From: Mytilus trossulus
Lineage: Eukaryota
NCBI RefSeq assembly: GCF_036588685.1
Contig: NC_086380.1
Span: 33,658,313 to 33,722,312, forward strand
Reading direction: 5' to 3'
Length of the DNA: 64,000 nt
In this document: positions 3,821 through 59,048 of the stretch, piece by piece
Layout of the letters: the number at the start of each line of letters is the position of its first letter
How positions within the stretch are numbered: the first letter of the stretch is position 1
The notes under the pieces: model-generated
Database searches by the model: none
What the model saw: the letters and a program-made list of their open reading frames with translations, nothing else
What the model was told of the DNA's origin: nothing
Translations under genes and position numbers: made by a program

Positions 3821-4570
3821 TTTTTATTTACCAAATTAGGGTATGTAATATTGTATGTAATATTCAGAGTATTCTTCCAATAGAGATGGACTATTTTTGA
3901 GTGTGAATTTTGACTCTTGCTCGTAAAAGCAAGAGTCTTATTTTACACTGAAAGTCAGAATTTGGGTAAATCACATTTACTGAATTACAATAAGTGGCGT
4001 TGTCCGTACCATTTACTAGCCTCTAGATATATTTGAAGAATCCTTACAATTTTAGAGGTATAAATATAGATTAACTGTTGTAGTATTGTATAATTTTGGA
4101 CCATGCCATACATGTCACATGTACATGTATTGCCAAAATTATTTAAAAGTTGTGTAATCCAAGGATTTGTATAGTATTTACTATACAAATCCTTGTGTAA
4201 TCCATGTAAAATTTTAGGTATTTGAATTAGACATATGTTCACGCAAGGATTTGTATAGTAAGATGGTTCACGCATACATGAGTACTTGAGCAAATACAAT
4301 CAGTTTCCAATCACTACGAGCACCCATGAGATCTTAAATTGAGCAAATATGATCACTTACATTTATGAGTAAAATTTGAGCTAGATCTACTCAATTGAGT
4401 TAGATATATTAATTTTGAGACTAATTCATATGGTTATTTGAGCACACATGTATCTATATATACTACACTACCAATAATTCACCCATACTTTTTTGGTACA
4501 TTTCTACCCTCGTGCATATCAGTACTGTTAGGAAAGACTGAAACTTATAATGTTATACTTTCAATGAAAT

Positions 4571-4956
4571 CAGTACTGATTTTGTCAGTACTGTTTCAGT
4601 ACTGATTTTGACAGTACTGTTTCAGTACTGATTTTGACAGTACTGTTTCAGTACTGATTTTGACAGTACTGTTTCAGTACTGATTTTGACAGTACTGTTT
4701 CAGTACTGATTTTGACAGTACTGTTTTAGTACTGATTTTGACAGTACTGTTTTAGTACTGATTTTGACAGTACTGTTTTAGTACTGATTTTGACAGCACT
4801 GTTTCAGTACTGATTTTGACAGTACTGTTTCAGTACTGATTTTGACAGTACTGTTTTAGTACTGATTTTGACAGTACTGTTTCAGTACTGATTTTGACAG
4901 TACTGTTTCAGTACTGATTTTGACAGTACTGTTTCAGTACTGATTTAGTACTGATT
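4571..4956 (+). repeat. Satellite array, 26-bp unit CAGTACTGATTTTGACAGTACTGTTT, about 15 copies
   Basis: Directly abutting copies with no spacers. Variants carry ttt/tta at the unit end. Confidence 0.9.
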
Positions 4957-7900
4957 TCGTAAGTAGTGTTTATTTACTAATTTCTTCAGTACTGTTTCAT
5001 TATAACACTTTTTAAATCAGACTGTATCTTTATAGTGATGCCTAGTTGTTTTGTATATTTAGGGTGGGTTAATAGTTCTCTTTGACACTTACCCCATTTC
5101 CATTCATTTTCTATATCGTGACATGTTAATGTTTTCGTTATGTTTTTTTTTATTTCCCTGATTTTTGTTGTCCTGAAGTGGTTCAGCTTTTCGACAGTTA
5201 CTTTAGCTTTTTTTTTTTTAAATATTCTGGCTTTATGTCATATTTATTGTCAGAATTTCATCTTGTGTGGTCTACAAGGTTCATGTTTTTAATACTTATT
5301 AATACTTCTATTTGACAATACCATATTACATGTATTTATATCTTGCTTGAGTCAAATCAGAACATATTGAACATTGGAACTCGATATATTACTTTTGAGA
5401 AGATGGGTGGATGGATTGATGTTATGTGATCCAGTGGCAAGTTAAGTGCAGGAAGAGGACATGATACTCAGATATAAATACAATGTAATTAACATATTTT
5501 GTACAGAACTAGACCAATAATGCACTGAGCTCCTTTTTAACATGCTAGTTCACCACAAGGAGAGAATCTGCTATAAGACATGTCCCCCTACATGAACAGG
5601 TACCTTCAGACTGGACAGTGTATGTTTTTCTCCTTTTACTGTGAGCTGAGCGAATATTCAGAATACGACCACTTTTTTTAGTCTAACTTCTCATAAATAA
5701 ATTTCCAATCATATGCTCATTGTAAGATTTTTAATAGTTAAATACATTTATTGACAGATTTCTTTTTTTTTGTATACATTAATCATGCTGCAATTTCATT
5801 CACTTGTAATGAGTGTATTGTGAATAGTAACTTAAATACATGTATGCATAACTCTTGTACTCTTTCCTATAAAACTGCACAGCGTATTTTACGAAAATAA
5901 TATATGAAATTTGGTGTTACTATATTTAGGCATCCCGTTAACGAGGAGTTGAAAGGGTGAGAACTACATTACTCAGTATAGCATGTTCACATGAGGACTG
6001 ATGACTTTCAGAAACTCTTGGTTTGTAGTTCCTTAGAAATCTCTGATTGATTTGAATCTTACAGACATACAAACAGAGGAACATTTTGTAAAATAAGCAT
6101 AAAAATTTAAAGAAAGATTTCCAACAGACTGATTAATGTCTGACGGAGGTCATTTGGTACATAATTAACCTTTTTGATTTTTGAACATGTATTGTTTGCT
6201 TTTAAAAATTAATTTTTATTGACTGAATAAAACAAGATGAAGAACTCAATTTTTTGTTCTATCTTCTTATCAACTGCAATAACTTCCATCGAAATACAAT
6301 AAACAGTAATCTTAAGAATGAACAGCATTAAAAAGTTAAAAAAAAATGTGTTTTTCTCTCTCTCAATTTAATGGGTTTTTTTTAATAACTGTTTCATAAT
6401 TCTGCTTCAATGTTATTTTCCATTGCTCTTCCTATGCATGTGATATATATCTTTGCCAACTTGTTTCTGGAAAGGAAAAAGTGGATAATAACATTTATCA
6501 TTTTGTTAAAGTCCAATTAAAGATTAAACATAGGTCAACCATGACATAATGTGAAACAGTGTACATGCATTACTAAAGGTGGTATAACGTTAATTATACA
6601 AGGTTTATATTATACAGGGAGAAAAATGAAAGAAAAGAATGGAACAATGTTTGATTTACCTACTTGAAAACTGGCCTTGAAGTCATTAAACTTTCGAGTC
6701 AGTTATTTACTCAAACTCCAAAATCAACAAATCAACCAATCAAAATGCTGGATTTCAATTTTTGACCACGATTTTTTTTCTCCGGGCACTGAGAAAATTT
6801 TGTATGACTTCAGGGCCTGATCTTATACGATTTGGAGAAGAACTTTAGTGTCCCAAGTCTGGGTTCATGGCAAATGTCCATGTTTTCAATACGGGCTGCA
6901 CTTTTTACAATACGGTATGGGTTTTCTCATTGTTGAAGTCTGCGCAGTTGTATATTATTGTTCACATTCACATCGTCTCAAATTTGGTGGATAGTTGTCT
7001 CAGTGACAATCCTACAACTTTTTATCATTTTATATATGCAATAGTTCAAAAATTAAATAAAAGTAATCTTTTTGTGATATTTTTCATTATTAGTACCAGT
7101 GGCAATTCTCATTATAATAAATTACTATCTTTTAAATCTGTTATTCGGTTACAGAGAAGGAGATCTTTGTTTATATTTCCTTTAGGTTCCTAAGTTCAAC
7201 TATGTCCTGCTGTAACACTCTGACATCTTTGGATCGGCAACAAAACACATATGTATTAATATAATCTGATTATTCGAGCACAATATCAATGCAATCTGTG
7301 AAACAGTTAAATGAGAAGTTGTGTGTACGGATATGTACTTCCCGTAGACTTCTTTGTTAACTTTAATGATATCTTTCAATTGTTGAAGAATGTATTTCTA
7401 CTCTTTTTTTTTTTGAACTTGCTCGTTGTTGGTTTGTTGTCATATGAACACACTACAACATTTCATGATATTGAAATAAAATTATAGGAATAACTGCAAA
7501 TACTTACTTTAAAAAAATCATAATTGAGTGTAAAACTATATATATACCTACCTTTTCAAATTATTTCAATGTTCTACTGTCACCTTTCATACCAGTTCTA
7601 TCTCTATCTCATATTTTATCTGTTCATGACAATTTTTAGTCGTTGATCTAAAACATTATTTTCCTCATAGACTTATACTTAGTCTTTGTGTTCTGGTGGG
7701 ATCCATTTTTAGATACCTATAACAATAGATCATACTGCATCAAATACTTTGCATGCATTTATAAAAAGTTGTTTTTCCCAACATGCATGTTATGGTATTA
7801 ATTATGGACGTAACACTTTGTAAATTATCCTTTGAAAAAATACACCATGAGATAAAGATTGTATCGATGATTTACAAAATTCTGTAAAGTGGTTCAGGAG

Positions 7901-9896: not shown

Positions 9897-10439
9897 CGGC
9901 AAAATATATGATCTGACAGGATGCTCACGGAATAAAACTTGTGATGGAAGAACACATACATTTGTAAAACATACATGAACAATAGCAATCCGTAGATGAT
10001 TCGAAAAGGATCCGCCATCTCTGACTTGTCGTTACAATCGTCTCTTTCTGTAACTTTAAGACTTTCTGCAAGTGGCTGGTAAACCGATATTTTCTCTACT
10101 GTATTTCTGTATCCTATCCTTCCCGGCTGATCTGCTGTTGTCTCAATTTTTGCCGTTGATGTTATTATCGTAATCACAAAAGCGCGTCAATATGGAACAT
10201 ACAATTGCCTATTGTAAAACGTTTATGTGATTGGATTTACACATGACGTCATTCATTGTTTACAAACGTTATTTTTGCACTCGCACTGACATTTCAACAG
10301 TTCAACAGTTCAAACTTCTCCTGGATTGAATACCACAATGGGATTGAAGGTAGATCAAGGTATAGTAGTACATTGAATATTTTAAAACTGAGAAAAGTGT
10401 AGCATAGCTAATTCAAAACATATTACGTTAGTTAAAAAA

Positions 10440-11530
10440 GCAGAATGCGCGTTACACAGTGGCGGACCCCTGGGGTTCGGGGGGTGGGAACACCAAATTA
10501 TTTTGGACGTTCAATGCATTATTCTATATAATACTACTTAAAATATTTTATTTCCCCCATTTTTTCGCTATAATTATGAAATCTTTAGGCGACTGAGTTG
10601 GAACCCCCCTTCTTCCTTTTATCCCGAGTGTTTGGAACCACAGGCACTGTAAGTGCCTGTGTTTGGAACCCTCTTTTAAAACAATGGGTGGATCCGCCTC
10701 TGGTTACAGAACTTTCTGTAAATGTCAAAATAGGTATAAAATCGCGGGTTGTTTTGGATATATACATATTATTACTTCTTCGCCAAACCTTATTAAATAG
10801 ATTATAGTATTAATATTTGTCAAATTGATATTTGTGAAATGATCAGCCTGACTTTCTAAACATATGATTGGATAAAGGGAGGTGCGGTACACCCCTCGGT
10901 GTAAGAAGGGGGAGGGGTCCGAAGGTTTGACCCCTTTTTAACGATAAATGCATCATAAATTTGAAAAGGGAAATCTATTTGGAAACCCTATCTCGAGATT
11001 TGGAACCCCCTTTTAAAAATGTGTTTCCTATTTTGACAGGATTTTTTTTATAGGGCACAATGCTTCATTTAGTTTGGGAAACATTTTAATATATAAGTCC
11101 TAGGTGCCTACAAAATTATTTCATCTCGCCACATTGACTGCTGTGTTTGTTGCTGTTCAGTTGTTGCTGCATATATTTATATTTTTATATATAAGTAATC
11201 TCGTTTGAAATGATTTTACAACAACATTTCTGTTACTTCTGGGTTTTTTTAATAATTTGTTTGCATACTATGCGATCTGGGCAATGCGATACATGGGTTT
11301 GCTCATTGTGCATTTGATGTGGTAAAAATCAGGGGCGGATCTAATTCTAATTTGATTGTCAGTGTACACACAACCAGTATGTTGTTTCAGTCCGATGCAT
11401 TTTTGGCCCGGTGTAACCATTCTCAGTGGCGGATCCATAAATTTACATGAGTGGGGGCCCACTGACTGACTTAAGAGGGGACCGGCTCCAGTCACGCTTC
11501 AATAATTCCCCTATATAAGCAACCAAATTT
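10440..11530. repeat. Cluster of 4-5 copies or fragments of a GC-rich dispersed repeat family whose head motif is CAGTGGCGGATCC...GGGGG
   Basis: cagtggcggacccctggggttcggggggtggg sits near 10457, and ggtggatccgcc near 10688 in inverted orientation. ggaaccccc...cgagatttggaaccccc lies at 10990-11010. caggggcggatct is at 11331 and cagtggcggatccat at 11427. Related copies occur at 27470-27620, 27770-27850, 28190-28270, 36770-36870, 58250-58440, 63040-63075 and 63670-63710. Confidence 0.5.
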
Positions 11531-13209
11531 TGCCCCCCCCCCTAAATCAACCTCTGACTCTAGGCAGCCCTCACACACGAGTAATTGGGGTCGATGGGTT
11601 GGGTGGCTCAGTGTTGTATTAATATATAAGAAGATGTGGTATAACTGCCAATGAGAAAAGTCTCCTGTTCATATAAGTCGTAATTTGTAGAAGTAAACCA
11701 TTATAGGTCAAAGTACGGTCTTCAATACCGTGCCTGCATGGGCTCTCACCGAACAGCAAGGTGTAAAGGGCCCCAAAAGTGACTAGTTTAAAACCATTCA
11801 AACTTGAAAACCAACTACTGAATACCAAACTCCTGACGTAAGACAATAACCTTTTTGTATTGTTACAATCTCAAAAAACGTGTCCGATAATTTAAGAATG
11901 TGTCCGGTTAAAAAAAACAGAATATTTCAAAACTCATATACCCCCAATGATACTCTGTAAAGTAAAAACGCAATTCAATATTAATGGTGTGGGATACGAT
12001 AGAACCCGTATTGTAAATGATTAGAAAAAAAAGTCGAAGCAGGTGCCAAAAACAAATCTGGAGGAAAGGTTTAGTAATCCGTACAGACAAATGTCCAAGG
12101 CATGCTACACTGTGCACGCTTTCTTCTGCTTGCAGACACAGACTACAGGTCTGGTTAAAAAAAAAAATTGCACAATAAAAAGTTATTTTTATTTGAAGCG
12201 CTTTAATTTATGATTTTCTTTATCAATATGATTATTATCATTATAAAGTTCAGACAGAGGTACTTCACAATTTAGAAAACTAATACATCATGTATATTTT
12301 ATATTGTATTATCTTCCCGGTGCTTGACCACGTTTACTGTATGTCATTGATAAACATTAGTTTGTTCAGCATAGGTAATTCATAACAAGCACAACTGCAG
12401 GCTAAGATTACAACACATACTTTACTTTTGATTACTTAATGTCCAGTGGCAAATATGTCATGCGTATTTAGAAAAAAAAAACCATTAACATTGCATTTAA
12501 TAAGTTTTGTAAAGTTTAAATCATCGTTTATAAATAGAAAGTAAATTCTATTGTTTTATATTATACGGTGATGCCTATAAATGTCTTTTTACAAAATGTA
12601 TGTATATGAGGGTACTGCTCGACCGGCGTCCCGCAGAAGTGGTTTCGCCAGTGCAATTTGACATGTTTATCAAATCATTGACGCGTTTTGGAGGAATCAG
12701 ACACGTTTCTGTGTGCTACCATGGATAGATGTATAACATCTGTGGCTAGGTGCTACATATATGACTATGTACGATAAATTTTCAATTAAATTAAATTTCC
12801 ACTTCAATCTATTAAACATTAATGTACTTTTGTATAAAGTAGTTAGTATATATAAATGTCTTTCGTCGTTGTTTCACGGATCTTATTATAAAGAGCACAT
12901 AAATAGACCGATGGTTAAAGCTACACGTGTATGAAATACTTGCCACTGGCAAACACCAATACTTTGATGATGATGAATTAAATTATCATATTTTCCTTTT
13001 TTTTTTTTATTTAGAAACAAATTTCAACTTTGATTGATTATAATATATACATGTAGTATCAGAAGTCCAGTCCATTAGTGATTACTGGACTTATGGTAGT
13101 ATATAAAGTAATAAGTAAATTTTGATGTCATACCATTCCCTTCCATAATTGTGCATTCTTTTTATTTTTACATTTATAACACAGAAATGAGGAAAGTTTT
13201 AACATAAGA

Positions 13210-13330
13210 AAATTTATTGTAGCCTAGACCTGTTGGTGACCTTCTGCTGTTGTTTTTTATTTGGTCGGGTTGTTGTCTCTTTGACACATTCCCCATATCC
13301 ATTCTCAATTTTATTATTTATAAATTCATT
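13210..13330 (-). mobile_element. Partial copy (5' region, reverse strand) of the ~320-bp SINE-like element
   Basis: The reverse complement matches aaattgagaatggaaatggggaatgtgtcaaagagacaacaacccgaccaaa...acagcagaaggtcaccaacaggtct, which is seen at 15875 and 46915. Confidence 0.6.
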
Positions 13331-14110
13331 ACATTTTCTTTCCTCAGAATGATTAACAGCAATGGAGACAGGAGCAGACATGGGAATGTTCGATGTGAAA
13401 ATTGAAGACCTATAAACAAAATGATGTATCAATATGGCACTCATCAGAAAAAAAAAACCAACATTTAATCATGAACCATTGAATCCTGAGTTTCGTACAA
13501 TTACCAAAACATTAAAGGTGGATGCTTATAATGAGCTCATATTAGAACTAAAGTGTCCTCTTGAATTACCACTGTACATGTAAAAAGACACATCATATCC
13601 GGGACTGAATTGAGGAAAAGAGCCAGGAAACTGACATTCAACAAAGCATTCCAAAGAAAAGATGGCATAGGGGGAGAGCAATGAAACATGATACATGCAA
13701 AATTAATTGTTTCTTGATTGTTTTATTTATGAGCTTTAAAGGGTCATAAAATAACCAAGGGGCATGAAAATGACAGAGATTTTTGCCACAAACTTCACAT
13801 GTTGGTATGACATTGAATGTTTTATTATATATTAAAAAATGGTTATGAAAAGAAATTCCAGTTATGATTAAAAATAAGGTAATCGAGACATTGTTTTGTG
13901 TTGATTATAATGCATTGCCTAACATAGTAACATATGACTGCATTAATTACAATATATTTTAAGCAATAGCAAAATACCAAAAAATGAACAGTATTGAAGA
14001 TTCTTATCTTGTTTGATATATATATAAATTATGCGCTATTATACAATTGATACTGTAAAATATCAGCCTCGAACCACAGTGTGAATCTTCCTGATGTCGA
14101 GTGCGTTACC

Positions 14111-14436
14111 GTATTATTTTTATAAACACTGAAAGACAGTCACAATCAAAATCAAGAAGTAAGCAAAGAATTACAAAACGAAAGGGCATTTACAACAACA
14201 CATTGAAAAATACATATATAAAAACAACACGAACTCCATTAAAACCGGGAGTGAATTCAGGTGCTCCTAATGGGTATTATTTTTATAAACACTGAAAGAC
14301 AGTCACAACCAAAATCAAGAAGTAAGCAAACAATCACAAAACAAAAGGGCATTTACAACAACACTTTGAAAAATACATAAAAGACAACACGAACTCCATT
14401 AAAAACTGGTAGTGAAATCAGGAGCTCCTAATGGGT
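14111..14436. repeat. Tandem duplication, about 163-bp unit, 2 copies
   Basis: gtattatttttataaacactgaaagacagtcacaa...ctcctaatgggta occurs at 14111 and again at 14274 with about 90% identity. Confidence 0.85.
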
Positions 14437-14867
14437 AAAATCCGATAAACTGCTTATCTTGCTTTATTTCTGTTGTTTTCTCCTTCGCTTCAATAGTTTT
14501 TCGATAGACGAGAGTAAGCTTGATAATTTTCCTTGGTCATGTTCACGTCGCTAAAAAAAATCTGCGCAGCAAGGTGATATAGTCAAAGAGAAAAACGTAA
14601 CCAGCTAAAAAAGGATAATAATAATATTGTTACAGAATTATCAAACCTATATTTGATCAAACCTATATTTGGATACCAATTGTACTGAGATGCACATTGT
14701 AAAAACTTCTCTGATGATTAACACTTAATCAGAGATATCTACAAAAGATACAAAATATGCCACAAATTATTATATAGCATACTATACTTGCCGAGTTTAA
14801 AAGTTTTCAGTTACAAATATTTTTTGAAACAATACACATTCAAGTTAAAAAGATTAACAACACCAAA

Positions 14868-15137
14868 TCTACTGAAACAGTACTGAAAATAACAATACCG
14901 AAATAGTACTGTCAACATCAGAACTGAAACAGTACTGACAAAATCAGTACTGAAACAGTACTGTCAAAATCAGTACTAAAACAGTACTGACAAAATCAGT
15001 ACTGAAACAGTACTGTCAAAATCAGTACTAAAACAGTACTGTCAAAATCAGTACTGAAACAGTACTGTCAAAATCAGTACTAAAACAGTACTGTCAAAAT
15101 CAGTACTGAAACAGTACTGACAAAATCAGTACTGATT
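14868..15137 (-). repeat. Same 26-bp satellite in reverse-complement orientation, about 9-10 copies
   Basis: cagtactgaaacagtactgtcaaaatcagtact... is the reverse complement of the 4571-4956 array. It becomes degenerate at its inner edge (14868-14920). Confidence 0.9.
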
Positions 15138-17255: not shown

Positions 17256-18780
17256 ATATATTCTAGATAATTCAAACAAAATGTTCAGCAACATTTAACA
17301 TGTTTAAAGCAACCTTTCTATTTTATTCCCAAACATAATTGTTATTACCTTAACAACCTTGTTTCAAAGCAGTTTAGATTTCTATCAAATTGGATGAGAA
17401 TCCAGGAGTTTTAAAGGGGGAGGGGTCTAGCAAGTCGATCAACACTTTGGGTAAAACTATATAAAAAAAGGACTATGCATTTACCATACATGGAGCTCCT
17501 CGAAAAAGCATGCCTTTAGCTCCTTCCTCCCCCCAAAAGTCTGCCTTAGCAATTTTAAACACTCTTACGCTGTCTATTCATGTAGCTGTACATTGGAGCC
17601 TATGAGATTACAATCTGAGTAGCCATCTGAATCACAGAAAATCAACCTATAAATATTTTCATGTATAAATTGATAATTAAATTTTAACCAATGCAATTTA
17701 TACATTTTTTTAAATTTATTTTTGATAATTTTTTGTTCATTTAAAAATATAGGGTCAACAGAGTTGGTGTATGTGGGTTCGATTCCCACCCTAGGCATTC
17801 ATTTATATTGGCTGGTGCAAAGCGGGCAGTTAAGCTTAGTGGCCCCACACTGACTCTGTTGTTCATATGTCACTTTAAAGAATCAGGCGGCCTTCTTCAG
17901 GTCTTGCCATCTCTATTTTTTATTTGTAAATCATACACAACAAAACTATTGAATAATTGTGAAAATTATACCACAGATAACTATGGTAAAACTTTAATTC
18001 TTGTTGGCATAATTAAACTTGGCAGCAATGCTGCCATCCAAGATCCAAAAAGTATTATATTGATGAATTATATATTTCAGATTTGGATTCTTTTGGTCAC
18101 AAAACATTTTGGATGGTAGGTTGCTCAGTCTTTAGTTTTCTATGTTGTTTTTAGAATAGTGTACTTTTTTTTGTCTGCATGTCTTTTTTAGTTTTAGTCA
18201 TGGAATTGTAAGTTTATTTTCGGTTTATGAGTTTGCTGTTCATCTGGTATCTTTAGCTCCAATATTACAATTTGTCTGTTTTAATATGATTGTCTTAAAT
18301 CTCTTTATCATAGTTCAGTGAGCATTGGTGAGTCACTATATAGCTACTCGAAGAATTGTTTGCTATGTTGATTCTCTATTATAAATTACATGCTAACTAT
18401 TTTTGTATGTGTGCAACTATATAGTCAAAATGCCAATCTAACAGTTCTCATTTGACCACATAATCATTGATAATTCACAAAGTTAAGTATCTATGGCACA
18501 AATTTCATCCTAGCCCCCCCCATAAAAATCAAATGGTAGCTCCCTTAGAGGCAGTTATTTCATTGTGCTTTAAATTCAAATAGAAAAAAATGCTCCTGCT
18601 CTATCTATAAGTTCATTATATTTTATGCCATTATTCTCTTCTTTTCCCCCAATATTATTATCTATTCATTTTTGTCCATTCTGTCTTGTTTTTCCGTTAT
18701 TTTCTGTTATATCAACAACCCATCCAGACCTTCATGCATGTGTATGACAGGCACCATTGTTTGTCTAATTAGAACGAGGT

Positions 18781-19870: not shown

Positions 19871-21325
19871 CTAAAATTATTATATTAAGTTTTGTGCAAT
19901 AGCAAGTCTTTTCAATTGCACAGTATTGCGCAATGGCAAGAAATATCTTATTGCAAAATATTGTGAAATAGCAATTTTGTTTTTAATTAGAGTTATCTTT
20001 CTTTGTCCAGAATAGTAAGCAAGAAATATCTAATTGTAAGAATTTTTTTTATTTGGAGTTATCTTTCTTTGTCCAGAATCAACTTAAATCTTTGTTATAT
20101 ATACAATATACAATGTATATTCACTTTTTACTACCAACTGATAAATTAAAATAATCTACCATTTAGTGATAACAAGCAGTTTTTTTACATCTTAATATTT
20201 TATGATGTATTTTAATGAGTAGTAATTGTTGCAAACTCCATTAGAAATTTTAATTGAGATTAGTTTTGGAATAAGGGAAAGGGGGATGTGATTAAAAAAA
20301 ATGGGTTCAATTTTCTCATTTGAAATTTCATAAATAAAAAGAAAATTTCTTTAAACATTTTTTTGAGAGGAATAATATTCAGCAGCATAGTGAATTGCTC
20401 TAAGAGAAAGTAAATTTTTTAATTTCATTAGAACACATTCATTCTGTGTCAGAAACCTATGCTGTGTCAACTATTTAATCACAATCCAAATTTAGAGCTG
20501 AATCCAGCTTGAATGTTATGTCCATTCTTGCCCCAACCGTTCAGGGTTCAACCTCTGCGGTCGTATAAAGCTACGCCCTGCGGAGCATCTGGTTGTCTTT
20601 AAGTTGTTGTTTACATATATTATTCTCAATTGTTATCCTATTGTTTTTAATTTCCTTTTTGTGTCCATTCTGTTGTCTTTTTCTATTATTCTCTAATATA
20701 TATATAAACATCCCTTCCAGAACTTCATGCATATATATGGCAGGTCAGGTATTGTTATTGGTGAGTTATATGAAAAATATTAAGAACGAAAATTAAATCT
20801 TATTCTTTTAGCTTATAATTTACATATTATTTAAATCTAAAGGAGATACTACAAAGCCAATTAAAAAATACTTTCAATTTCAAAGTATTTATTCAAATTA
20901 ATTCCGACAAAACAATTTAAATTAACTTAAAATGAGAAGAAAATTAGTTGTAAATTAGATCTGTTTGTGAAAATACACATTTGTGGATATATTTTATTAA
21001 GTTTAAAAACGGTTGTGGAAGAACACAATGTGGTTTTTTTTGGCAATTAGTTAAATTATATCAATAATAGTTTTTTCTCTGAAAACTTAAGACACTGTGC
21101 AAAGGGAGGCAAATCAAATTTTCCCAAAAAGGTGCCGTATCGCCAGCTGATGGTGCTATATCAGCAGGTGCTCTATCAGCAGGTAAGTGATCTAGACCTT
21201 ACTGGTCTGGGTTGGTTGGCCAGGTCACACCACACATTTTTTAAACTAAATACCTCAAATAGACAATGATGATTGTGGCCAAGTTTAGTTTAATTTAGCC
21301 CAGTTGTTTCAGAGGAGAAGATTTT

Positions 21326-21510
21326 TGTAAAAGCTTTAAGCTTCTGTCAAAGTTTGGTACAAATCCAGGATAGTTTAAGAAAGTTATTAAAATTTCAAAA
21401 ACTTTAACCACAGAGTGAATATTTGTGGGGACGACGACGGAATGTAGGATTGCTATGTTTCACTATTTCGAAAAATGTTGAAGGCTAGCAAAATTAAGAC
21501 CACTTGTAAG
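21326..21510 (+). repeat. Single ~180-bp unit plus terminal flank of the S180 family (gcttctgtc.aagtttggta.aaatccag...ttcaaaaactttaaccacagagtgaatatttgtgg.gacgacgacggaatgtaggat.gct...gttgaaggct.g.caaaa)
   Basis: The same unit and terminal flank occur at 23808-23995, 58440-58990 and 59560-60150, always on the + strand. Confidence 0.6.
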
Positions 21511-21540
21511 TAATATACAACTAGAGGCTCTAAAGAGCCT

Positions 21541-23725
21541 GTGTCGCTCACCTTGGTCTATGTGCATATTAAACAAAGGAAACAAATGGATTCATGACAA
21601 AATTGTATTTTGGTGATGGTGATGTGTTTGAAGTTCTTACTTTACTGAACGATTTTGCTTCTTACAATTATATCTATCATGAACTTTGCCCATTAGTAAC
21701 AGAGAACTATATTTGGTAAAAATTTACATAAATTTACCAAATTAATGAAAATTGTTAAAAATTGACTATAAAGGGCAATAACTCCTTAAGGGGTCAATTG
21801 ACCATTTAGGTCATGTTGAATTATTTGTAGATCTTACTTTGCTGAACATTATTGCTGTTTACAGTTTATCGCTATCTATAATAGTATTCAAGATAACCAA
21901 AAACGGCAAAATTTCTTTAAAAATTACCAATTGGAGGGCAGCAACCCAACAACCAGTTGTCCAATTCATCTGAAAAATTCAGGGCAGATAGATATTGACT
22001 TGATTAACAATTTAACTTCTTGTCAGATTTGCTCTAGATGCTTTGGTTTCATAGTTATAAGCAAAAAACTGCATTTTACCCCTATGTTCTATTTTTAGCC
22101 GTGGCGGCCATCTTGGTTGAATGGCCAGGTCATCGGACACATTTTTCAAACTAGATACCCCAAAGATGATTGTGGCCTAGTAGTTTCAGTGGAGATTTTG
22201 TAAAAGATTACTTAGATTTATGAAAAATGGTTAAAGATTGACTATAAAGGGCAATAACTCCTAAAGGGGTCAACTGACCATTTTGGTCATGTTGACTTAT
22301 TTGTAGATCTTACTTTGCTGAACATTATTGCTGTTTACAATTTATCTCTATCTATAATAATATTCAAGATAATAACCAAAAACAGCAAAATTTCCTCAAA
22401 ATTACCAATTCAGGGGCAGCAACCCAACAACCGATTGACCGATTCATCTGAAAATTTCAGGGCAGATAGTTCTTGACCTGATAAACATTTTTATCCCATG
22501 TCAGATTTCCTCAAAATGCTTTGGTTTTTGAGTTATAAGCCAAAAACTGCATTTTACCCCTATGTTCTATTTTTAGCGGTGGCGGCCATCTTGGTTGGTT
22601 GACCAGGTCACGCCACACATTTTTTAAACTAGATACCCCAAAGATGATTGTGGCCAAGTTTGGATTAATTTGGCCAAGTAGTTTCAGAGGAGAAGATTTT
22701 TGTAAAAGATTACTTTAATTTACGAAAAATGGTTAAAAATTGTTTATAAAGGGCAATAACTCCTAAACGGGTCAATTGACCATTTTGGTCTTGTTGACTT
22801 ATTTGTAGATCTTACTTTGCTGAACAGTATTGCTGTTTACAGTTGATCTCTATCTATAATAATATTCAAGATAATAACCAAAAACAGCAAAATTTCCTCA
22901 AAATTACCAATTCAGGGGCAGCAACCCAACAACCGATTGACCAATTCATCTGAAAATTTTAGGGCAGATAGATCTTGACCTGATAAACATTTTTATCCCA
23001 TGTCAGATTTCCTCAAAATGCTTTGGTTTTTGAGTTATAAGCCAAAAACTGCATTTTACCCCTTTGTTCTATTTTTAGCCGTGGTGGCCATCTTGGTTGG
23101 TTGACCAGGTCAAGCCACACATTTTTTAAACTAGATACCCCAAAGATGATTGTGGTCAAGTTTGGATTAATTTGGCCAAGTAGTTTCAGAGGAGAAGATT
23201 TTTGTAAAAGATTACTTTAATTAACGAAAAATGGTTAAAAATTGACTATAAAGGGCAATAACTCCTAAACGGGTCAACTGACCATTTTGGTCATGTTGAC
23301 TTATTTGTAGATCTTACTTTGCTGAACATTATTGCTGTTTACAGTTTATCTCTAACTATAATAATATTCAAGATAATAACCAAAAACAGCAAAATTTCTT
23401 CAAAATTACCAATTCAGGGGCAGCAACCCAACAACCGATTGACCGATTCATCTGAAAATTTCAGGGCAGATAGATCTTGACCTGATAAACATTTTTACCC
23501 CATGTCAGATTTGCTCTAAATGCTTTGGTTTTTGAGTTATAAGCCAAAAACTGCATTTTACCCCTATGTTCTATTTTTAGCCGTGGCGGCCATCTTGGTT
23601 GGTTGACCGGGTCACGCCACACATTTTTTAAACTAGATACCCCAATGATGATTGTGGCCAAGTTTGGTTTGATTTGGCCCAGTAGTTTCAGAGGAGAAGA
23701 TTTTTGTAAAAGTTAACGACGACGG
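21541..23725. repeat. Tandem repeat, about 480-510-bp unit, about 4.5 copies
   Basis: gactataaagggcaataactcc recurs at 21763, 22240, about 22743 and 23254 (periods of 477, about 503 and about 511). A partial extra unit sits upstream at 21180-21325. Confidence 0.9.
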
Positions 23726-23771
23726 ACGACGACGACGACGGACGACGACGGACGACGGACGCCAAGTGATG
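23726..23771. repeat. Microsatellite (ACGG)n interleaved with (ACG)n
   Basis: acgacgacggacgacgacgacgacggacgacgacggacgacggacg. Confidence 0.9.
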
Positions 23772-23776
23772 AGAAA

Positions 23777-23807
23777 AGCTCACTTGGCCCTTCGGGCCAG
23801 GTGAGCT
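23777..23807. repeat. Long hairpin agctcacttg-gccc-ttc-gggcc-aggtgagct
   Basis: Near-perfect 14-bp stem with a perfect ggccc/gggcc core. The partner hairpin is at 24104-24135. Confidence 0.8.
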
Positions 23808-24097
23808 AAAAAAACAGGAAATAAATTTTTACAAAATTTCCATCTGAATATTAGCTTGATTGTAAACAAACTTCTGTTCATGTTTAGTACAGAGTTATTA
23901 AAATTTCAAAAACTGAGTGAATATTTGTAGAAGACTACAAAAGAAATGTAGGATGGCTTAGATAGTCTTGCTTTTGCCACTAAAGTTGCAGGCGCTATAA
24001 AAACATGAAAATAAGTTCATGGTCAGATGTACTTCATCAGACAAACATGTTTACCTTTATATAATCATTCTGTATACCAAATATAGTTGACCCTTTT

Positions 24098-25373
24098 TTA
24101 GCTCACCTGACCTGAAAGGTCAAGTGAGCTTTTCTCATCACTTGGCGTCCGTCGTCCGTCGTCCTGCGTCTGTCGTCCGTCGTCCGTCGTCCGTAAACTT
24201 TTACAAAAATCTTCTCCTCTGAAACTACTGGGCCAAATTAAACCAAACTTGGCCACAATCATCCTTGGAGTATCTAGTTTTAAAAATGTGTCCGATGACC
24301 TGGCCATCCAACCAAGATGGCCGCCATGGCTAAAAATAGAACACAGGGGTAAAATGTATATTTTGGCTTATATCTTTGAAACCAAAACATTTAGAGCAAA
24401 TCTGACATGGGGTAAAACTGTTGATCAGGTCAAGATCTATCTGCCCTGAAATTTTCAGACGAATGGGACAACTTGTTGTTGGGTTGCTGCCCCTGAATTG
24501 GTTATTTTAAGGAAATTTTGCAGTTTTTGGCTATTGTCTTGAATACTATTATAGATGGAGATAAACTGTAAACAGCAATAATGTTCAGCAAAGTAAGACC
24601 TACAAATAAGTCAACATGACCAAAATTGTCAGTCAACCCCTTAAGGAGTTATTGCCCTTTATAGTCAATTTTTAACAACTTTTCGTCATTTTTTGTAACT
24701 TGTACAAAAATCTTCTTCTCTGAAACTACATGGCCAAATTTAACCAAACTTGGCCACAATTATCATTGTGGTATATAGTTTCAAAAATGTGTCCGATGAC
24801 CCCGCCTACCAAACAAAATGGCCGACATGGCTAAAATTAGAACATAGCGGTAAAATGCAGTTTTTGAATTATATCTTTGAAACTAAGACATTTAGGGCAA
24901 ATCTTTCAAGATTTAAATGTCCATCAGAATAAGATCTTTCCCCTCACAAATTTTCAGATGAATCCGACAACTCGTTGTTGGGTTGCTGCCCTAAAATTGT
25001 TAATTTTAAGGAAATTTTGCAGTTTTTGGTTATTATCTTGAATACTGTTATAGATAGAGATAAACTGTAAACAGCAATACTGTTCAGCAAAGTAAGATCT
25101 ACAAATAAGTCAACATGATCAAAATTATTAGAGGACCCCTTTAGGAGTTATTGCCCTTTATAGTCAATATTGAACAATTTTTCGTCATTTTTGTAACTTG
25201 TACAAAAATCTTCCTTTCTGAAACTATGGGCCAAATTTAAACAAACTTGGCCACAATCATTACTAGGGTATCTATTTGAAAAAGTGTTTAGTGACCCCAC
25301 CTACCAACCAAGATGACCGACATCAGTAAATACAGTAACAGGTGAGCGACACAGGCTCTTGAGAGCCTCTAGT
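24098..25373 (+). mobile_element. Tandem-repeat-bearing element, right arm, in inverted orientation relative to 21521-23807
   Basis: Order: ttttttagctcacctgacctgaaaggtcaagtgagct hairpin at 24104-24135, then ttttctcatcacttggcg, then (CCGT/CGT)n at 24147-24195, then about 2.3 reverse-complement copies of the 480-bp unit, ending ggtgagcgacac-aggctc-ttga-gagcct-CTAG at 25341-25373. The last segment is the reverse complement of 21521-21552. Confidence 0.5.
24200..25340. repeat. About 480-bp unit, 2.3 copies, reverse complement of the 21541-23725 array
   Basis: ggagttattgccctttatagtc occurs near 24645 and 25147. The reverse-complement ORFs 24249-24449 and 24750-24932 mirror ORF 23461-23661 (MATIIxGVSSxKNV...). 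Confidence 0.85.
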
Positions 25374-25916
25374 TTTTTTTATCTCTTATAACTTTTACTT
25401 ATAGTATCCAAAATATAATCCTTATCACAAAATTTAAATATGAACAAATATCCATGAAAATAAGGTCAAGGTCAGAAGAACCTTGTTAGACAGACATGTG
25501 CACCATACAATCATTCCATCCATTAAAACATAAATAAACATGAAGAATTACCTTGTTTCAGAGAAACAAATACATAATCACAAAACTGAACATTAATCAC
25601 TGAACCAGGACTTGATTAGGCTAGGCATTCCCTCAGGATGGTAATAATGAATTGCTGTTTAAAGTCCTGTGGCAATTAAATGCATATTCAGGACAGGTTC
25701 GTGAATATTAAGCCTACTTTGTGCAATCCACAAATAGAGCAGCAGCAAATGCCATTTTTTAAATCATTGGTTTTAACATGCCAGGGGGTCCAACTTGAGA
25801 CCAACGCAATAACACAAGACCACTGATGTAATCTTTGTATGAAGGACATGTATACCTTTTTTATAATTTTATAATATACCAATATATAGTCAGCCATATT
25901 ACACATAAGGTTGCAA

Positions 25917-38917: not shown

Positions 38918-39200
38918 ATGGGCGTCAAGTTGGTTACCTATTCCCTATTCCCTATTCGTTACCTATTCCCTATTCCCTATTCGTTACCTATTCGTTACCT
39001 ATTCCCTATTCCCTATTCGTTACCTATTCGTTACCTATTCCCTATTCCCTATTCGTTACCTATTCGTTACCTATTCCCTATTCCCTATTCGTTGCCTATT
39101 CGTTACCTATTCCCTATTCCCTATTCGTTGCCTATTCGTTACCTATTCCCTATTCCCTATTCGTTACCTATTCGTTACCTATTCGTTACTTATTTGATTT
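38918..39200 (+). repeat. Short-unit array built from CCTATTC (7 bp) and GTTACCTATTC (11 bp)
   Basis: ggttacctattccctattccctattcgttacctattccctattccctattcgttacctattcgttacc.... ORF 38918-39223 (LPIRYLFPIPYS...) is a translation artefact of this array. The inverted twin lies at 52690-52985. Confidence 0.9.
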
Positions 39201-40093
39201 TTAATATCCATCCCCCTTTTTAATTATGGCATTGTAAAGTTTAATATGGCTGCCATGGAAACGGCACAATTGTGAAAAAAAAATATGTTTTTGGTTTTGG
39301 GTGAACTGTTTGGATATGCTTCAACTCAGAATCATCATATTTTAAAACAATGTAGGTGCCCACTATATACAGGTGTTGGATGACTTTGGCGATCATTGGT
39401 ACTACAATGTTGCCATGGAAACTACACCAAAATTTTCAAAATTCTCAAAATGCTCAAAACTTCATGAAACTTCACAGTAATGATGAGCAACAATGGTAGA
39501 TGTGGCATTTGGAGTTGGAATTTCTAAATAGGTCTTGTTTCCATGGAAACAATGCAAAAAGGTCAAAAATTTCAAAAATAAGAATTTTGAGTAAACTGGA
39601 TGAATCTTTACAGGATGGTAACTGGCATAGGCAGAGTCGGATTTTGAAGTTAAAATTTTCAAAATGGCAGCCGTAACCATGGAAACAGCAAAAATATCAA
39701 ACATTTCAAAATGTTCAAACTTAATGAAACTTTGCAAAAATGTTACTAGACATCTGTAGATGCTCTCTTTCACTTTGGAATTGTCAAAATGGCTGCCGCT
39801 CACCTGGTAATAGGGGGAAGGGTGCCATCCGTTATTGCTAGCAATTACAAATCTAGTTGTTAATACTCTTACATATGGTAATAGTTCTAAATTTGTTGAG
39901 GTAAAATGATCTTTTTATGACCTATTTATATGTGTTTGTGCTCAACCGATCCTTTTACTTCATGTTCGATACGCATTTGTTCCTTACTTGGTTTTTTTAT
40001 ACGTTCTACTTTTTAACTGCTTTATGTCCGTATGTTTGAAGATGGATCTTGGTTCGACGGGATGAAATCACCGTGTTAGCACATGCATAAAAA

Positions 40094-40352
40094 AGAAGAT
40101 GTGGTATGATTGCCAATGAGACAACACTCCACATTAGACCAAAATGACACAGAAATTATCAACTATAGTTTACTGTACGGCCTTCAACAATGAGCATAGC
40201 CCAAACCGTGTAGTCACCTATAAAAGGCCCAGGCACGATAACCTCATACAATTCAAACAACAAAATTGACCGCCGTATTTCATATACAAAAAAAACGGAA
40301 ATATGCAACACAAAAACAAACAATAACTACTTAATTTCAGGCTTATAATACG
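40094..40352 (-). mobile_element. MITE-family copy (about 260 bp) at the outer edge of the left satellite arm
   Basis: agaagatgtggtatgattgccaatgagacaacactccacattagaccaaaatgacac...gggctttgctcattgttgaaggccgtacagtaaac (reverse complement) ...cgtattataagcc. Its mirror copy lies at 51547-51805. Confidence 0.7.
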
Positions 40353-43300
40353 AGTATATTACGTTGCACCTTTTAAAACATCATTTTCAATTGTTTTGTT
40401 GTCACTGGTGGAAGATTTGGGCTCTTAGAGGTGATATAACTCTATAAGTGCATTTGTATCCGTTCCAGCGCTCGGAAAATACCCTGTTACCTATTCGTTA
40501 CTTATTCGCTTTTCCAAAGTTTTTTGTACGTTGCACCTTTTAGAAAAGAATTTTCAATTAAGTTCATATCTCTGGTGGTAATAATGTGTTCTTATAGATG
40601 AAATACCCCTATTAGCACATATTTACTCGTTCTAGCGCTCGGATAATACCCTGTTACTTATTCGTTCCTTATTTGCTTTAATGCACGGGGTATACGTTGC
40701 ACCTTGAAATAAATCGTTTTTTAATTGTGTTCATGTCTCTGGTGGTAACAATGTGTTCTTAGGGATGAGATGACCCTATTAGAGCGCATGAACCCGTTCC
40801 AGCGCTCGGTAAATAACTTGTTACCTATTCGTTACCTATTCGTTACCTATTCACTTATGATACGTTTGTTGTACGTTGCACCTTTGAGAAAAGGATTTTC
40901 TATTAAATTCATATCTCTAGTGGTAATAATGTGTTCTTATAGATGAAATACCCCTATTACCGCGTATGTACCCGTTCCAGCGCTCAGTAAATACCCTGTT
41001 ACCTATTCGTTACCTATTCACTTATAATACGTTTCTTGTACGTTGCATCTTTCAGAAAAGACTTTTCAATTGTGTCCGTGTCTCTGGTGGTAAAAATGTG
41101 TTCTTAGAGATGAAAATACCCTATTGGCGCGCATGTACCTGTCCCAGCGCTCCGTTAATAACCTGTTACCTATTCGTTACCTATTCACTTTTAATATTTT
41201 TGTTGTACGTTGCACCTTTTAGAAAAGGATTTTCAATTGTGCCCATAAGTCTGGTGGTAACAATGTGTTCTTAGAGATGAAATGACCTTATTAGCGCGCA
41301 TGTACCCGTTCCAGCGCACGGTAAATACCCTGTTACCTATTCGTTACCTATTCGTTACCTATTCACTTATAATCCGTTTGTTGTACGTTGTACCTGTTAG
41401 AAAAGGATTTTTAATTGTCTTTATGTCTCTTGTGATAACAATGTGTTCTTAGAGATGACATTACCCTATTACCGCGCATGTACCCGTTCGAGCGCTCGAT
41501 TAATACCCTGTTACCTATTCACTTATAAAACGTTTGTTGTACGTTGCACCTTTTAGAAAAGGATTTTTAATTGTCTCCATGTCTCTTGTGATAACAATGT
41601 GTTCTTAGAGATGAAATTATCCTATTAGCGCGCATGTACCCGTTTCAGCGCTAGGTAAATACCCTGTTACCTATTCGTTATCTATTCGTTACCTATTCAC
41701 TTATAGAACGTTTGTTGTACGTTGCACCTTTTAGCAAAGGATTTTCAATTAAATTCATATCTCTGGTGTTAATAATATGTTCTTAGAGATGAAAGACCCC
41801 TATTGGCGCGTATGTACCCGTTCCAGCGCTGAGTTAATACCATGTTTCTTATTCGTTCCTTATTTGCTTTTTATGCACGAGGTATACGTTGCACCTTGAA
41901 ATAAATCGTTTTTTAATTGTGTTCATGTCTCTGGTGGTAACAATGTGTTCTTAGAGATGAAATGACCCTATTAGAGCGCATGTACCCGTTCCAGCGCTCG
42001 GTAAATAACCTGTTACCTATTCGTTACTAATTCGCTTTTAATGCGCGGGGTATACGGTGCACCTTGAAATGAATCGTTTTTTAATTGTTTTCTAGTCTCT
42101 GGTGGTAAGAATGTGTTCTTAGAGATGAAATTACCCTATTAGCGCGCATGTACCCGTTCCAGCGTTCGTTTAATACCCTGTTACCTATTCGTTACCTATT
42201 CGTTACCTATTCACTTATAATACGCTTGTTGTACATTGCACCTTTTAGAAAAGGATTTTCAATTGTGCCCATGTCTCTGGTGGTAACAATGTGTTCTTAG
42301 AGATGAAATGACTCTATTAAAGCGCAAGTTCCCGTTCCAGCGCTCGGTAAATACCCTGTTACCTATTCGTTACTTATTCGCTTTTAATGCGCGGGGTATA
42401 CGGTGCACCTTGAAATAAATCGTTTTTTAATTGTGTTCATGTCTCTGGTGGTAACAATGTGTTCTTAGAGATGAAATGACCCTATTAGCGCGCATGTACC
42501 AGTTCTAGTGCTCGGTAAATAACCTGTTACCTATTCGTTACTTATTCGCTTTTAATGCGCGGGGTATACGGTTCACCTTGAAATGAATCTTTTTTTAATT
42601 GTTTTCAAGTCTCTGGTGGTAACAATGTGTTCTAAGAGATGAAATGACCCTATTAGCGCGCATGTACCCGTTCCAGCGCTCGGTTAATACCCTGTTACCT
42701 ATTCGTTACCTATTCACTTATAATACGTTTGTTGTACATTGCACCTTTTAGCAAAGGATTTTCAATTGTGCCCATGTCTCTGGTGGTAACAATGTGTTCA
42801 TAGAGATGAAATGACTCTATTAAAGCGCATGTACCCGTTCCAGCGCTCGGAAAATACCCTGTTACCTATTCGTTACTTATTCGCTTTTTAATGCGCAGGG
42901 TATACGGTGCACCTTGAAATAAATCGTTTTTTAATTGTGTTCATGTCTCTGGTGGTAACAATGTGTTCTCAGAGATGAAATGACCCTATTAGAGCGCATG
43001 TAACCGTTCCAGCGCTCGGTAAATGACCTGTTACCTATTCGTTACTTATTCGCTTTTAATGCGCGGGATATACGGTGCACCTTGAAATGAATCTTTTTTA
43101 AATTGTTTTCAAGTCTCTTGTGGTAACAATGTGTTCTTAGAGATGAGATGGCCCTATTAGAGCGCATGAGCCCGTTCCAGCGCTCGGTAAATAACTTGTT
43201 ACCTATTCGTTACCTATTCACTTATGATACGTTTGTTGTACGTTGCACCTTTGAGAAAAGGATTTTCAATTGTGCCCATGTCTCTGGTGTCAACAATGTG

Positions 43301-58990: not shown

Positions 58991-59048
58991 ATGGTTTAAA
59001 AAGAATGTTAAATAAAATTTGTTGAATAGTGTTTAATCAAATTTTGCA

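Follow-up and report, generated by a model that had tools for sequence, protein, structure and literature searches.

The part of the 64-kb window (the whole stretch of DNA that was analysed) described here carries two tandem-repeat-bearing elements, one on each strand, whose 5′ ends face each other across a short spacer (Table 1). Both copies have the same order of parts: in the 5′ portion, a T-run is followed by a 31-nt hairpin formed by AGCTCACCT and its complement, by the core TTTTCTCATCACTTGGCG and by a (GTCC/GTC)n microsatellite, and in the 3′ portion, tandem units of ~500 bp are followed by the subterminal repeat AGGTGAGCG, the palindrome AGGCTC-loop-GAGCCT, CTAG and TT. The ends of the element family are AGCTCACCT and AGGTGAGC, and the microsatellite and tandem repeats between the flanks have an identical orientation in both arms and in every external copy. 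The features that an initial annotation of this DNA had listed for the two arms were all present, almost to the base, including an (ACGG/ACG)n microsatellite beside each unit array, a conserved segment common to both arms (TTTTCTCATCACTTGGCG), 2.3 units in the right array, and inner hairpins facing each other across ~290 bp (the 31-nt hairpins are 292 bp apart).

Table 1 Coordinates of the two elements, their parts and the adjoining repeats, in window positions
Feature	Position	Strand	Details
Left element	21521..23807	-	2287 bp; read as a complete HINE copy; ends from comparison with other copies and from empty-site alignment against three uninterrupted 191-bp units
Left 3′ terminal CTAG	21521..21524	-	followed by TTG on the minus strand
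Left 3′ palindrome	21525..21540	-	AGGCTC-TTTA-GAGCCT; stem invariant in 11 copies
Left 3′ subterminal inverted repeat	21544..21554	-	AAGGTGAGCGA; 9/11 complementary to 5′ TAGCTCACCTG
Module of left-arm subfamily	21555..21732	-	~180 bp (183 bp), between last unit and 3′ end; 98% identical in L001, 83% in L003 and L011
Left tandem units (four)	21733..23715	-	476, 502, 502 and 503 bp
Left (GTCC/GTC)n microsatellite	23716..23759	-	plus-strand reading (ACGG/ACG)n; repeat tract 23716-23757
Left conserved left-flank core	23760..23777	-	TTTTCTCATCACTTGGCG; exact match
Left 5′ hairpin	23777..23807	-	subterminal repeat AGCTCACCTG and internal complement; from fold and covariation
Left 5′-boundary T-run	23808..23814	-	7 T (A on the plus strand); from copy alignment and empty site
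Right element	24100..25372	+	1273 bp; read as a complete HINE copy of a second subfamily; from comparison with other copies
Right 5′-boundary T-run	24094..24099	+	6 T; from copy alignment
Right 5′ hairpin	24100..24130	+	subterminal repeat AGCTCACCTG and internal complement; from fold
Right conserved left-flank core	24130..24147	+	TTTTCTCATCACTTGGCG; exact match
Right (GTCC/GTC)n microsatellite	24148..24194	+	repeat tract 24146-24194
Right tandem units (2.3)	24196..25339	+	501, 498 and 145 bp
Right 3′ subterminal inverted repeat	25339..25349	+	CAGGTGAGCGA; 10/11 complementary to 5′ TAGCTCACCTG
Right 3′ palindrome	25353..25368	+	AGGCTC-TTGA-GAGCCT; stem invariant in 11 copies
Right 3′ terminal CTAG	25369..25372	+	followed by 8 T (25373-25380)
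Spacer between hairpins	23808-24099		292 bp
Spacer, part 1	23815..24002		continuation of short 191-bp-family array; insertion target of left element
Spacer, part 2	24004..24093		portion of 147-bp repeat family, resuming past right element at 25381-25560
Host sequence of left insertion	21338..21520		one 191-bp-family unit (S180 of the initial annotation) with short ACG tract
Orphan fragment	21206..21336	-	first 130 bp of 500-bp unit; outside left element, fused to 191-bp-family unit

In order to define the element boundaries, a comparison set of 13 related public metagenome contigs was used, which supplied nine further 5′ ends and nine further 3′ ends. A metagenome scan with the 3′ end as the query yielded five contigs, and a protein search with a spurious ORF of the unit returned 29 unannotated matches, of which the contigs of six were used. 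One additional 5′ relative, 73% identical, stands beside the nine aligned ends. A match on contig L013 (Ramlibacter, 60% GC) was rejected as a further copy, being a chance match; a scan of viral contigs gave no match to the 3′ end, and the core and end sequences were not found in the full text of the literature. The further copies end at the same bases as the window elements and have unrelated flanks. Alignment of several copies, which the initial annotation had proposed for mapping the termini, showed shared boundaries for 11 5′ ends and 11 3′ ends (window copies included), and the element boundaries are precise and common to many copies at unrelated loci.

All 11 aligned 5′ ends have a T-run followed by AGCTCACCT, with unrelated sequence upstream, and at least four T close the 5′ flank in 10 of them. 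Folded as single-stranded DNA, the 5′ hairpin reaches -13.3 kcal/mol in the left element (z -4.5) and -11.5 kcal/mol in the right element (z -4.2), and at two base pairs the hairpins differ from each other through compensating changes. Across the 11 copies, 92% of the cells in the 13 base pairs are paired and three of the 13 pairs have changed on both sides, a covariation score that was reached by none of 500 shuffles; slid registers are 23-50% paired. A few bases downstream of the 5′ subterminal repeat, its inverted complement is present, as in DINE-1 and Cg_HINE. The core TTTTCTCATCACTTGGCG occurs twice in the 64-kb window, where 0.04 occurrences are expected.

At the 3′ end, the 64-kb window contains GGTGAGCGACACAGGCTCT at just two places, 21534-21552 on the minus strand and 25341-25359 on the plus strand, with any match seen in 0 of 100 shuffles, and AGAGCCTCTAG is found at 21521-21531 (minus) and 25362-25372 (plus). 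Subterminal inverted repeats near both element ends, a criterion for HINEs (~11-15 bp), are present with a length of 11 bp, and in the 11 copies the palindrome lies 3 nt beyond the 11-nt repeat and 4 nt short of the end. Taken alone, the 3′ palindromes are weak (-6 kcal/mol, z about -1.8) and not significantly stable, and there is no covariation in the stem among the 11 copies, as it never varies. Among the 11 aligned 3′ ends, neither the GAGCC arm of the stem nor the closing G-TT varies, and the flanks diverge beyond this point; all 11 flanks begin with TT. CTAG itself varies at two positions, being CTTG in two copies and TTAG in one. In a diverged subfamily found on contig L006, both ends are altered together, CACCTT occurring with AAGGTG.

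The outward ends of both arms had initially been annotated as a hairpin followed by CTAG and T, and both were found, with TT as the next bases; the right end, placed at 25373, is correct in motif and strand, but its last G is position 25372, one base away. Other copies without a common hairpin-CTAG end would have spoken against that annotation, and the 11 aligned 3′ ends share the palindrome, CT(A/T)G and TT. The expectation that they would end in CTAG directly before T at a TT or AT site held in part: TT follows in 11 of 11, whereas the terminal bases are CT(A/T)G or TTAG and the target is a T-run. The same applies to the reading of the terminus as a hairpin plus CTRR. CTAG fits CTRR, but because related copies end in CTTG or TTAG, CTRR is not the conserved feature of the element end.

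Canonical non-autonomous Helitrons, the class suggested by the hairpin plus CTRR end, would account for the hairpin 4 nt from the CTAG end and for the lack of a long target duplication. Of the features that define this class, however, a 5′ TC, insertion between A and T, and the absence of inverted repeats were not found. The elements are of the Helentron/HINE class and not canonical Helitrons, because the 5′ end is a T-run leading into AGCTC (AGCTCACC) instead of TC, 11-bp subterminal inverted repeats are present (along with a 5′ hairpin), and insertion is into T-runs instead of at A/T. The relatives ending in CTTG or TTAG also argue against a canonical Helitron, as does the combination of a microsatellite with central repeats, which is the layout of HINEs (PMC4067079, PMC7492417), leaving this alternative very unlikely.

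Two insertions could be compared with clean empty sites. For the left element, three intact 191-bp units, at ~58.55, 59.70 and 59.90 kb, match its two flanks as one unbroken sequence, and a related element at L006 5459-6757 has an uninterrupted flank paralogue at L006 5246-5375 (87.9% identical). Each of the two clean sites is a T-run, at which 2-3 T are extra and nothing longer is duplicated. The paralogue of the right-element site is diverged and has a ~24-nt gap at the junction, so the insertion point of the right element is approximate. The ~2 extra T can be read equally as a 2-bp TT target duplication or as T borne by the element. The former would suit cut-and-paste MITEs with a 2-bp TT target duplication, as pearl and DTC84 were first described: the extra T are seen at the two empty sites that are well resolved, the ends each have an inverted repeat close by, and for pearl and DTC84, which have the same architecture, such a 2-bp putative duplication, AA on the other strand, was given in the older literature (PMC3879986). 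However, the ends are asymmetric (one repeat, then a palindrome and 4 bases), the inverted repeats are subterminal and just 9-11 bp long, and the number of T differs between copies, as it does in Helentron ends (PMC4067079). In addition, the pearl/DTC84-type group has since been reassigned to the derivatives of Helentrons, on the grounds of autonomous partners in mites and insects that share its ends (PMC4067079) and, in oyster, of the structure of the ends and matches to Repbase (PMC7492417). A MITE origin is highly improbable.

The surroundings of the Helentron-type elements are themselves repetitive. Positions 23810-24002 of the spacer match the 191-bp family at 58468-60149, in agreement with the initial annotation of an S180-family unit there. 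Positions 21180-21520, which the initial annotation had included, lie outside the left element and hold one 191-bp-family unit and an orphan 130-bp piece of the 500-bp unit.

Successive tandem units are spaced 476, 502 and 502 bp apart on the left and 499-501 bp apart on the right, and the three inner left units are 95-96% alike. The left array had been counted as 4.5 copies of the unit; a tandem array is present, but it contains 4.0 full units, the remainder being the 183-bp module, which is partly unit-like only and gives no alignment with the right arm. Unit variants hold their array position between copies, from which it follows that element and array move together. Of the likeness to the ~160-bp BIV160/Cg170 satellite family that marks the core repeats of pearl-related bivalve elements, one short stretch was seen: the unit begins with a 41-nt box that resembles the oyster CL1 (Cg170-like) monomer (score 40; shuffles 20.7 +/- 2.1, maximum 32 in 300), no similarity to the oyster repeat being found in the ~500-bp unit outside this box; its conservation is 0.89 against an average of 0.84 along the unit, and it is not the most conserved stretch. 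Other proposed relationships were rejected. Similarity between thirds of the 500-bp unit is within the shuffle range, which does not support an origin from three diverged ~167-bp units, and neither the 191-bp S180 unit, for which a likeness to the 500-bp unit was suggested by eye, nor the 160-bp unit of a neighbouring element showed a significant relationship to it.

Comparison of the units between loci showed how the two arms are related. Identity between the last left unit and the L001 unit is 96.6%, and right unit 2 and the right partial unit are 94.9% and 90.8% identical, respectively, to the same positions in L002. Each arm is 95-97% identical to copies at other loci, and the arms are 82-90% identical to each other. 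The 183-bp module is found in the left arm, L001, L003 and L011, and is missing from the right arm. Each arm is nearer to copies at other loci than to the opposite arm, and two independent insertions are therefore indicated. The arms do form long inverted repeats with 84-90% complementarity, and a far larger palindrome exists elsewhere in the window, as might be expected if palindrome formation or a foldback event had produced an inverted duplicate of a single element here, leaving the arms as sisters. Such an origin is already strongly disfavoured and has little probability, as it conflicts with the closer identity of each arm to other loci (96.6% and 94.9% versus 82-90%), with the confinement of the 183-bp module to the left arm, with a spacer that is asymmetrical and made of two different host repeats, and with the separate empty site of the left arm. 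Repeat-rich regions are also prone to misjoining, and the head-to-head join could in principle be an artefact of assembly; however, the arms differ in structure and by 10-18% in sequence, in contrast to a foldback read artefact, and in the spacer, itself unique sequence, the host repeats of either side carry on, making this explanation extremely unlikely. On the sequence comparisons, then, the arms belong to different subfamilies, inserted separately into a transposon-rich patch, and are not a palindrome. The inverted pairing, initially noted as unusual, is no structural feature of the element and reflects these separate insertions; the head-to-head arrangement is a chance of insertion, and the locus is real but ordinary. 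There is a slight chance that the ~1.27-kb imperfect inverted repeat (84-90% complementary, 292-bp spacer) has consequences of its own: RNA reading through it would form a long hairpin that could feed small-RNA silencing of the family, and the DNA could be fragile and prone to rearrangement.

No coding capacity was found in the elements. Stops interrupt every frame of the units, which remain open for 83 codons at most; the longest ORF listed for the element region has 69 aa, and there is no ORF above 139 aa in the 64-kb window. The only long ORF on a related contig has an uncharacterized oyster protein as its best named relative (55% identity), which speaks for an origin from a bivalve, and matches no Pfam family. 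A fragment of a retroelement (LTR or LINE) or a SINE was considered and rejected: no Pfam domains were found in the 29 relatives of the unit ORF, a window scan gave no tRNA genes or Rfam matches, and there is no poly-A tail in the element sense. No sign of an LTR or LINE fragment, an origin that the initial annotation had named as an example of what would refute its reading, was seen in these scans.

Taken together, we consider that the two elements at this locus are complete, non-coding members of a single HINE family (non-autonomous Helentron-type rolling-circle elements), which arose as separate insertions in opposite orientation, 292 bp apart, in a pre-existing patch of repeats (probability roughly 0.87). 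Of the interpretation first given to this DNA, the tandem-repeat-bearing, rolling-circle-type, non-autonomous architecture stands; the class is to be read as Helentron/HINE, MgE is a poorer match than stated, and the pairing is no structural feature.

The rolling-circle mechanism rests on analogy here, because an autonomous Helentron with these ends was not found in the window, which has no ORF above 139 aa. By that analogy, a Rep/helicase from an autonomous Helentron elsewhere in the genome would recognise the ends and nick the 5′ boundary (PMC4067079, PMC7492417), the subterminal repeats and the 5′ hairpin presumably serving as recognition structures. One strand would then be peeled off as far as the 3′ palindrome, acting as a stop mark, and the single-stranded copy would be integrated between two T. 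The number of units may shift locally by unequal exchange or slippage, after or between transpositions, of which the three 95-96% identical left units would be an example.

The left flank, microsatellite, core repeats and right flank follow the architecture published for pearl/DTC84 and for HINEs (PMC3879986, PMC7492417, PMC4067079), as had been proposed. Among the closest described systems, Cg_HINE of oyster (2020, PMC7492417) has the same order of parts, including the 5′ inverted repeat, a GTCC/GTCY-type microsatellite, repeats in one orientation and a palindrome, inserts at T-rich/TT sites without duplication, and is found in either orientation and also inside other repeats; its units are ~150-180 bp, whereas those here are ~500 bp, and the flanks are compared here in their layout. 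DINE-1 and further HINEs from Drosophila, mosquito and mite (Thomas et al. 2014, PMC4067079) resemble the present family in their subterminal repeats (with an inverted repeat beside that of the 5′ end), in the succession of conserved core, microsatellite and central repeats, in a 3′ stem-loop, and in a preference for TT with a variable string of T at the boundaries, but have no sequence relationship to it. In mite HINEs, the 3′ palindrome is 8-35 nt and the 3′ subterminal repeat 38-60 nt from the end (PMC4067079), versus 4 nt and ~24 nt here. Pearl (CvA, CvE, CvG) and DTC84 of clams and oysters (PMC3879986) have the modular layout, an array bounded on one side by an ACGG-type microsatellite and, in DTC84, a fixed order of unit variants within it; their core repeats are ~160 bp, and this comparison too is one of layout. 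MgE of Mytilus galloprovincialis (Kourtidis et al. 2006, as described in PMC3879986 and PMC7492417) comes from a mussel and has, by its published description, the general architecture seen here, but it is a poorer match than initially claimed, being reported without a microsatellite (PMC3879986). The genome carrying the pair is bivalve-like and probably that of a mussel.

Elements of this kind, with this architecture and likely mechanism, have already been described in oysters, clams and insects, and the locus opens no new question. It provides one further example of rolling-circle transposons spreading tandem repeats. For a HINE family whose central repeats, at ~500 bp, are unusually long, it also supplies a clearly bounded reference copy for which exact ends, two subfamilies and empty sites are available, and this should aid repeat annotation in bivalve, probably mussel, genomes.

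Between 21.5 and 25.4 kb the window carries two elements of the same anatomy in opposite orientation (Table), as the initial annotation had noticed and as was confirmed; the only errors in its coordinates and motifs were an offset of one base at the right end and the number of units in the left arm. In the whole 64 kb there are exactly two occurrences of the 19-nt 3′ motif and two of the 18-nt core (0.00 and 0.04 expected, respectively). The 5′ hairpins are far more stable than their shuffles (z -4.2 and -4.5; equalled by 0 of 200), and the 3′ palindrome is short, its folding energy alone not being significant (z about -1.8). Outside the left element, an orphan fragment at 21206-21336 corresponds to the first 130 bp of the 500-bp unit; it is fused directly to a unit of the 191-bp repeat family and breaks off at roughly the point in the unit where the incomplete final unit of the right arm does.

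Features of the HINE-like elements in the window
Feature	Position	Strand	Sequence or composition
Right element, whole	24100-25372	+	
Right, 5′ T-run	24094-24099	+	six T
Right, 5′ hairpin	24100-24130	+	31 nt, AGCTCAC-C-TGACCT-GAA-AGGTCA-A-GTGAGCT
Right, core	24130-24147	+	TTTTCTCATCACTTGGCG
Right, microsatellite	ends 24194	+	(GTCC/GTC)n
Right, units	24196-25339	+	501 + 498 + 145 bp
Right, 3′ subterminal repeat	25339-25349	+	CAGGTGAGCGA
Right, 3′ palindrome	25353-25368	+	AGGCTC-TTGA-GAGCCT
Right, terminus	25369-25372	+	CTAG, then eight T
Left element, whole	23807-21521	-	parts as in right element, with two differences
Left, difference 1	21733-23715	-	four units
Left, difference 2	21555-21732	-	extra ~180-bp module before 3′ end
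Third element, 5′ start		+	T-run and 5′ repeat TATACGACCGC, hairpin partner GTCGTATA
Third, core		+	ATCACGTTGGCG, resembling ATCACTTGGCG of the studied family; then (GTC)n tract
Third, arrays		+	consecutive, 160 bp x 2.9, then 261 bp x 2
Third, 3′ repeat		+	GCGGTCGTATA, perfect 11-bp complement of own 5′ repeat
Third, 3′ end		+	palindrome GCTACGC-CCT-GCGGAGC

Related copies were collected from outside contigs. Scanning metagenome contigs for the 3′ end recovered five (L001-L005); a meaningless 83-codon frame of the unit, used as query in a protein search, hit 29 ORFs without annotation on contigs from ENA and JGI, and the six longest contigs among those bearing them were taken as L006-L011. 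Within 7.6 kb, L006 contains four 5′ and three 3′ ends of the studied family; it also has a 234-aa ORF whose best named relative, at 55% identity, is an uncharacterized oyster protein (Saccostrea echinata), indicating that the copy-bearing material is bivalve. The core was also used to scan prokaryotic genome records, which yielded a further contig, L012 (FXLX01000183.1), where positions 714-1203 are related to the 5′ end and unit of the element (73% identity). This contig has 33% G+C and low coverage and is filed within a ‘SUP05 cluster bacterium’ assembly; as SUP05-clade bacteria include mussel gill symbionts, host contamination is plausible, and L012 is probably host-animal DNA inside a bacterial assembly. 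On L007, which also bears diverged element copies, a 24-bp repeat (GAGTTATCTCCCTTTTTTATATTG) is present in 204 tandem copies at 10002-14852.

All 11 aligned 5′ ends begin with a T-run followed by AGCTCACCT, the sequences upstream being unrelated, and the 11 aligned 3′ ends are invariant from AGGTGAGCGA to the GAGCC stem arm and at the final G-TT, past which they diverge completely. Judged by these alignments, both termini are real element ends. The hairpin-CTAG terminus noted initially holds as an end shared by 11 copies, except that CTAG itself varies at two positions (CTTG in two L006 copies, TTAG in L011), so that the Helitron-style CTRR is not the conserved feature. Across the 11 copies, 92% of cells in the 5′ hairpin are paired, compared with only 23-50% in slid registers, and 3 of its 13 pairs show double-sided changes (TGGCCC/GGGCCA, TGACCT/AGGTCA, TTTCCT/AGGAAA), a covariation score reached by 0 of 500 shuffles. 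The hairpins of the left and right elements themselves differ at two pairs, by compensating changes.

The joined flanks of the left element (21486-21520 and 23808 onward) align unbroken to each of three intact 191-bp-family units, which start at ~58.55, 59.70 and 59.90 kb. On the plus strand the insertion site is a run of A (a T-run in the element sense), and the filled site has 2-3 T more than the empty sites with no other duplication. Similarly, an unbroken paralogue of the flanks of the L006 element at 5459-6757 lies 100 bp upstream (87.9% identity over 132 columns), with AATTTTT-element-TTTG at the filled site versus AAATTTTTG at the empty one. Comparison of filled and empty sites identifies both elements as insertions. 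The right element is flanked by a 147-bp repeat family, and an intact L006 paralogue aligns on either side of the junction; this paralogue is diverged, with a ~24-nt gap at the junction, and so does not fix the insertion point exactly. The studied family has inserted into the 147-bp family (L006 5200-5460 and 6758-6885; window 24004-24093 and 25381-25560) on at least three occasions, each time in a different T-run. The 191-bp family, called S180 in the initial annotation, lies at 58468-60149, 21338-21520 and 23815-24002 in the window, the host of the left insertion being a short array at 21.3-24.0 kb, and some units of the family contain a short ACG/ACGG tract and, after it, a conserved tail.

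The ~500-bp unit contains no ORF of note and no threefold substructure, and no Pfam domains were found among the 29 ORF relatives of its stop-free frame. The single significant connection between the unit and known bivalve repeats is through a 41-nt box located at its microsatellite-proximal start (AATCTTTTACAAAAATCTTCTCCTCTGAAACTACTTGGCCA), which scores 40 against the oyster CL1 (Cg170-like) monomer (shuffles 20.7 +/- 2.1, maximum 32). Unit variants hold their array position from copy to copy: the last left unit shares 96.6% identity with its counterpart at the end of the L001 array versus 87-88% with its own neighbours, and right unit 2 shares 94.9% with its L002 counterpart versus 85% with right unit 1. 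This indicates that the element carries the array along, as happens in DTC84. Local amplification is suggested by the 95-96% identity among the three inner left units.

HINEs (non-autonomous Helentrons) are defined by subterminal inverted repeats, a microsatellite, central tandem repeats of fixed orientation and a 3′ palindrome, and by insertion at TT or T-rich sites without duplication, with a variable number of boundary T; in DINE-1 and the oyster HINE types an inverted repeat adjoins the 5′ subterminal repeat (PMC4067079, PMC7492417). Every sequence-testable feature of the class was found here, and the elements have the GTCC/GTCY microsatellite class in common with oyster Cg_HINEs. The Helitron/Helentron-like assignment made initially was therefore right in substance, the class being Helentron/HINE as assigned from sequence features of non-autonomous copies; a canonical Helitron was rejected, since the elements lack a 5′ TC, insert at a target other than AT and possess subterminal repeats. 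Of the architectures likened to the pair, that of pearl, described first along with DTC84, has the same layout, with a microsatellite of ACGG and, putatively, an AA duplication; the Mytilus element MgE is reported to have no microsatellite (PMC3879986). The kind is well described, and the studied family is a member of it that is new or possibly already catalogued.

The window is non-coding eukaryotic DNA: it is AT-rich (G+C ~27-40%) and crowded with tandem repeats, no ORF exceeds 139 aa anywhere in it, and tRNA and Rfam scans of it gave zero matches. A 26-bp repeat forms two arrays in opposite orientation 10 kb apart (4570-4946, 14.5 copies; 14870-15135, 10.2 copies). A ~14-kb palindrome at 38918-52993 is made of a 167-bp satellite that flips orientation at ~46222, its arms being 89.5% identical across 5.2 kb, and is flanked by mirrored blocks of a 36-bp repeat (38937-39184 and 52720-52974). 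Another complete HINE-like element, the third in the window and from a separate family, lies at 18807-~20594 (+; Table); its outer flanks (18670-18760 and 20660-20750) are similar to one another.

The inverted pairing, initially called unusual, is incidental. By sequence, the two arms belong to different subfamilies, the left having a 183-bp module and being common to L001, L003 and L011, and the right being common to L002 and L004. They also occupy different host repeats, the spacer consisting of both hosts side by side, and an origin of the pair by inverted duplication is unsupported. HINE-like pieces are dense in the window (the 18807-~20594 element, the 21206-21336 orphan, and the 191-bp arrays at 21.3-24.0 and 58.5-60.1 kb), and oyster HINEs occur in both orientations and also within other repeats (PMC7492417). 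Given this density, in the window and on L006, and the oyster precedent, two opposite insertions 292 bp apart are unremarkable.
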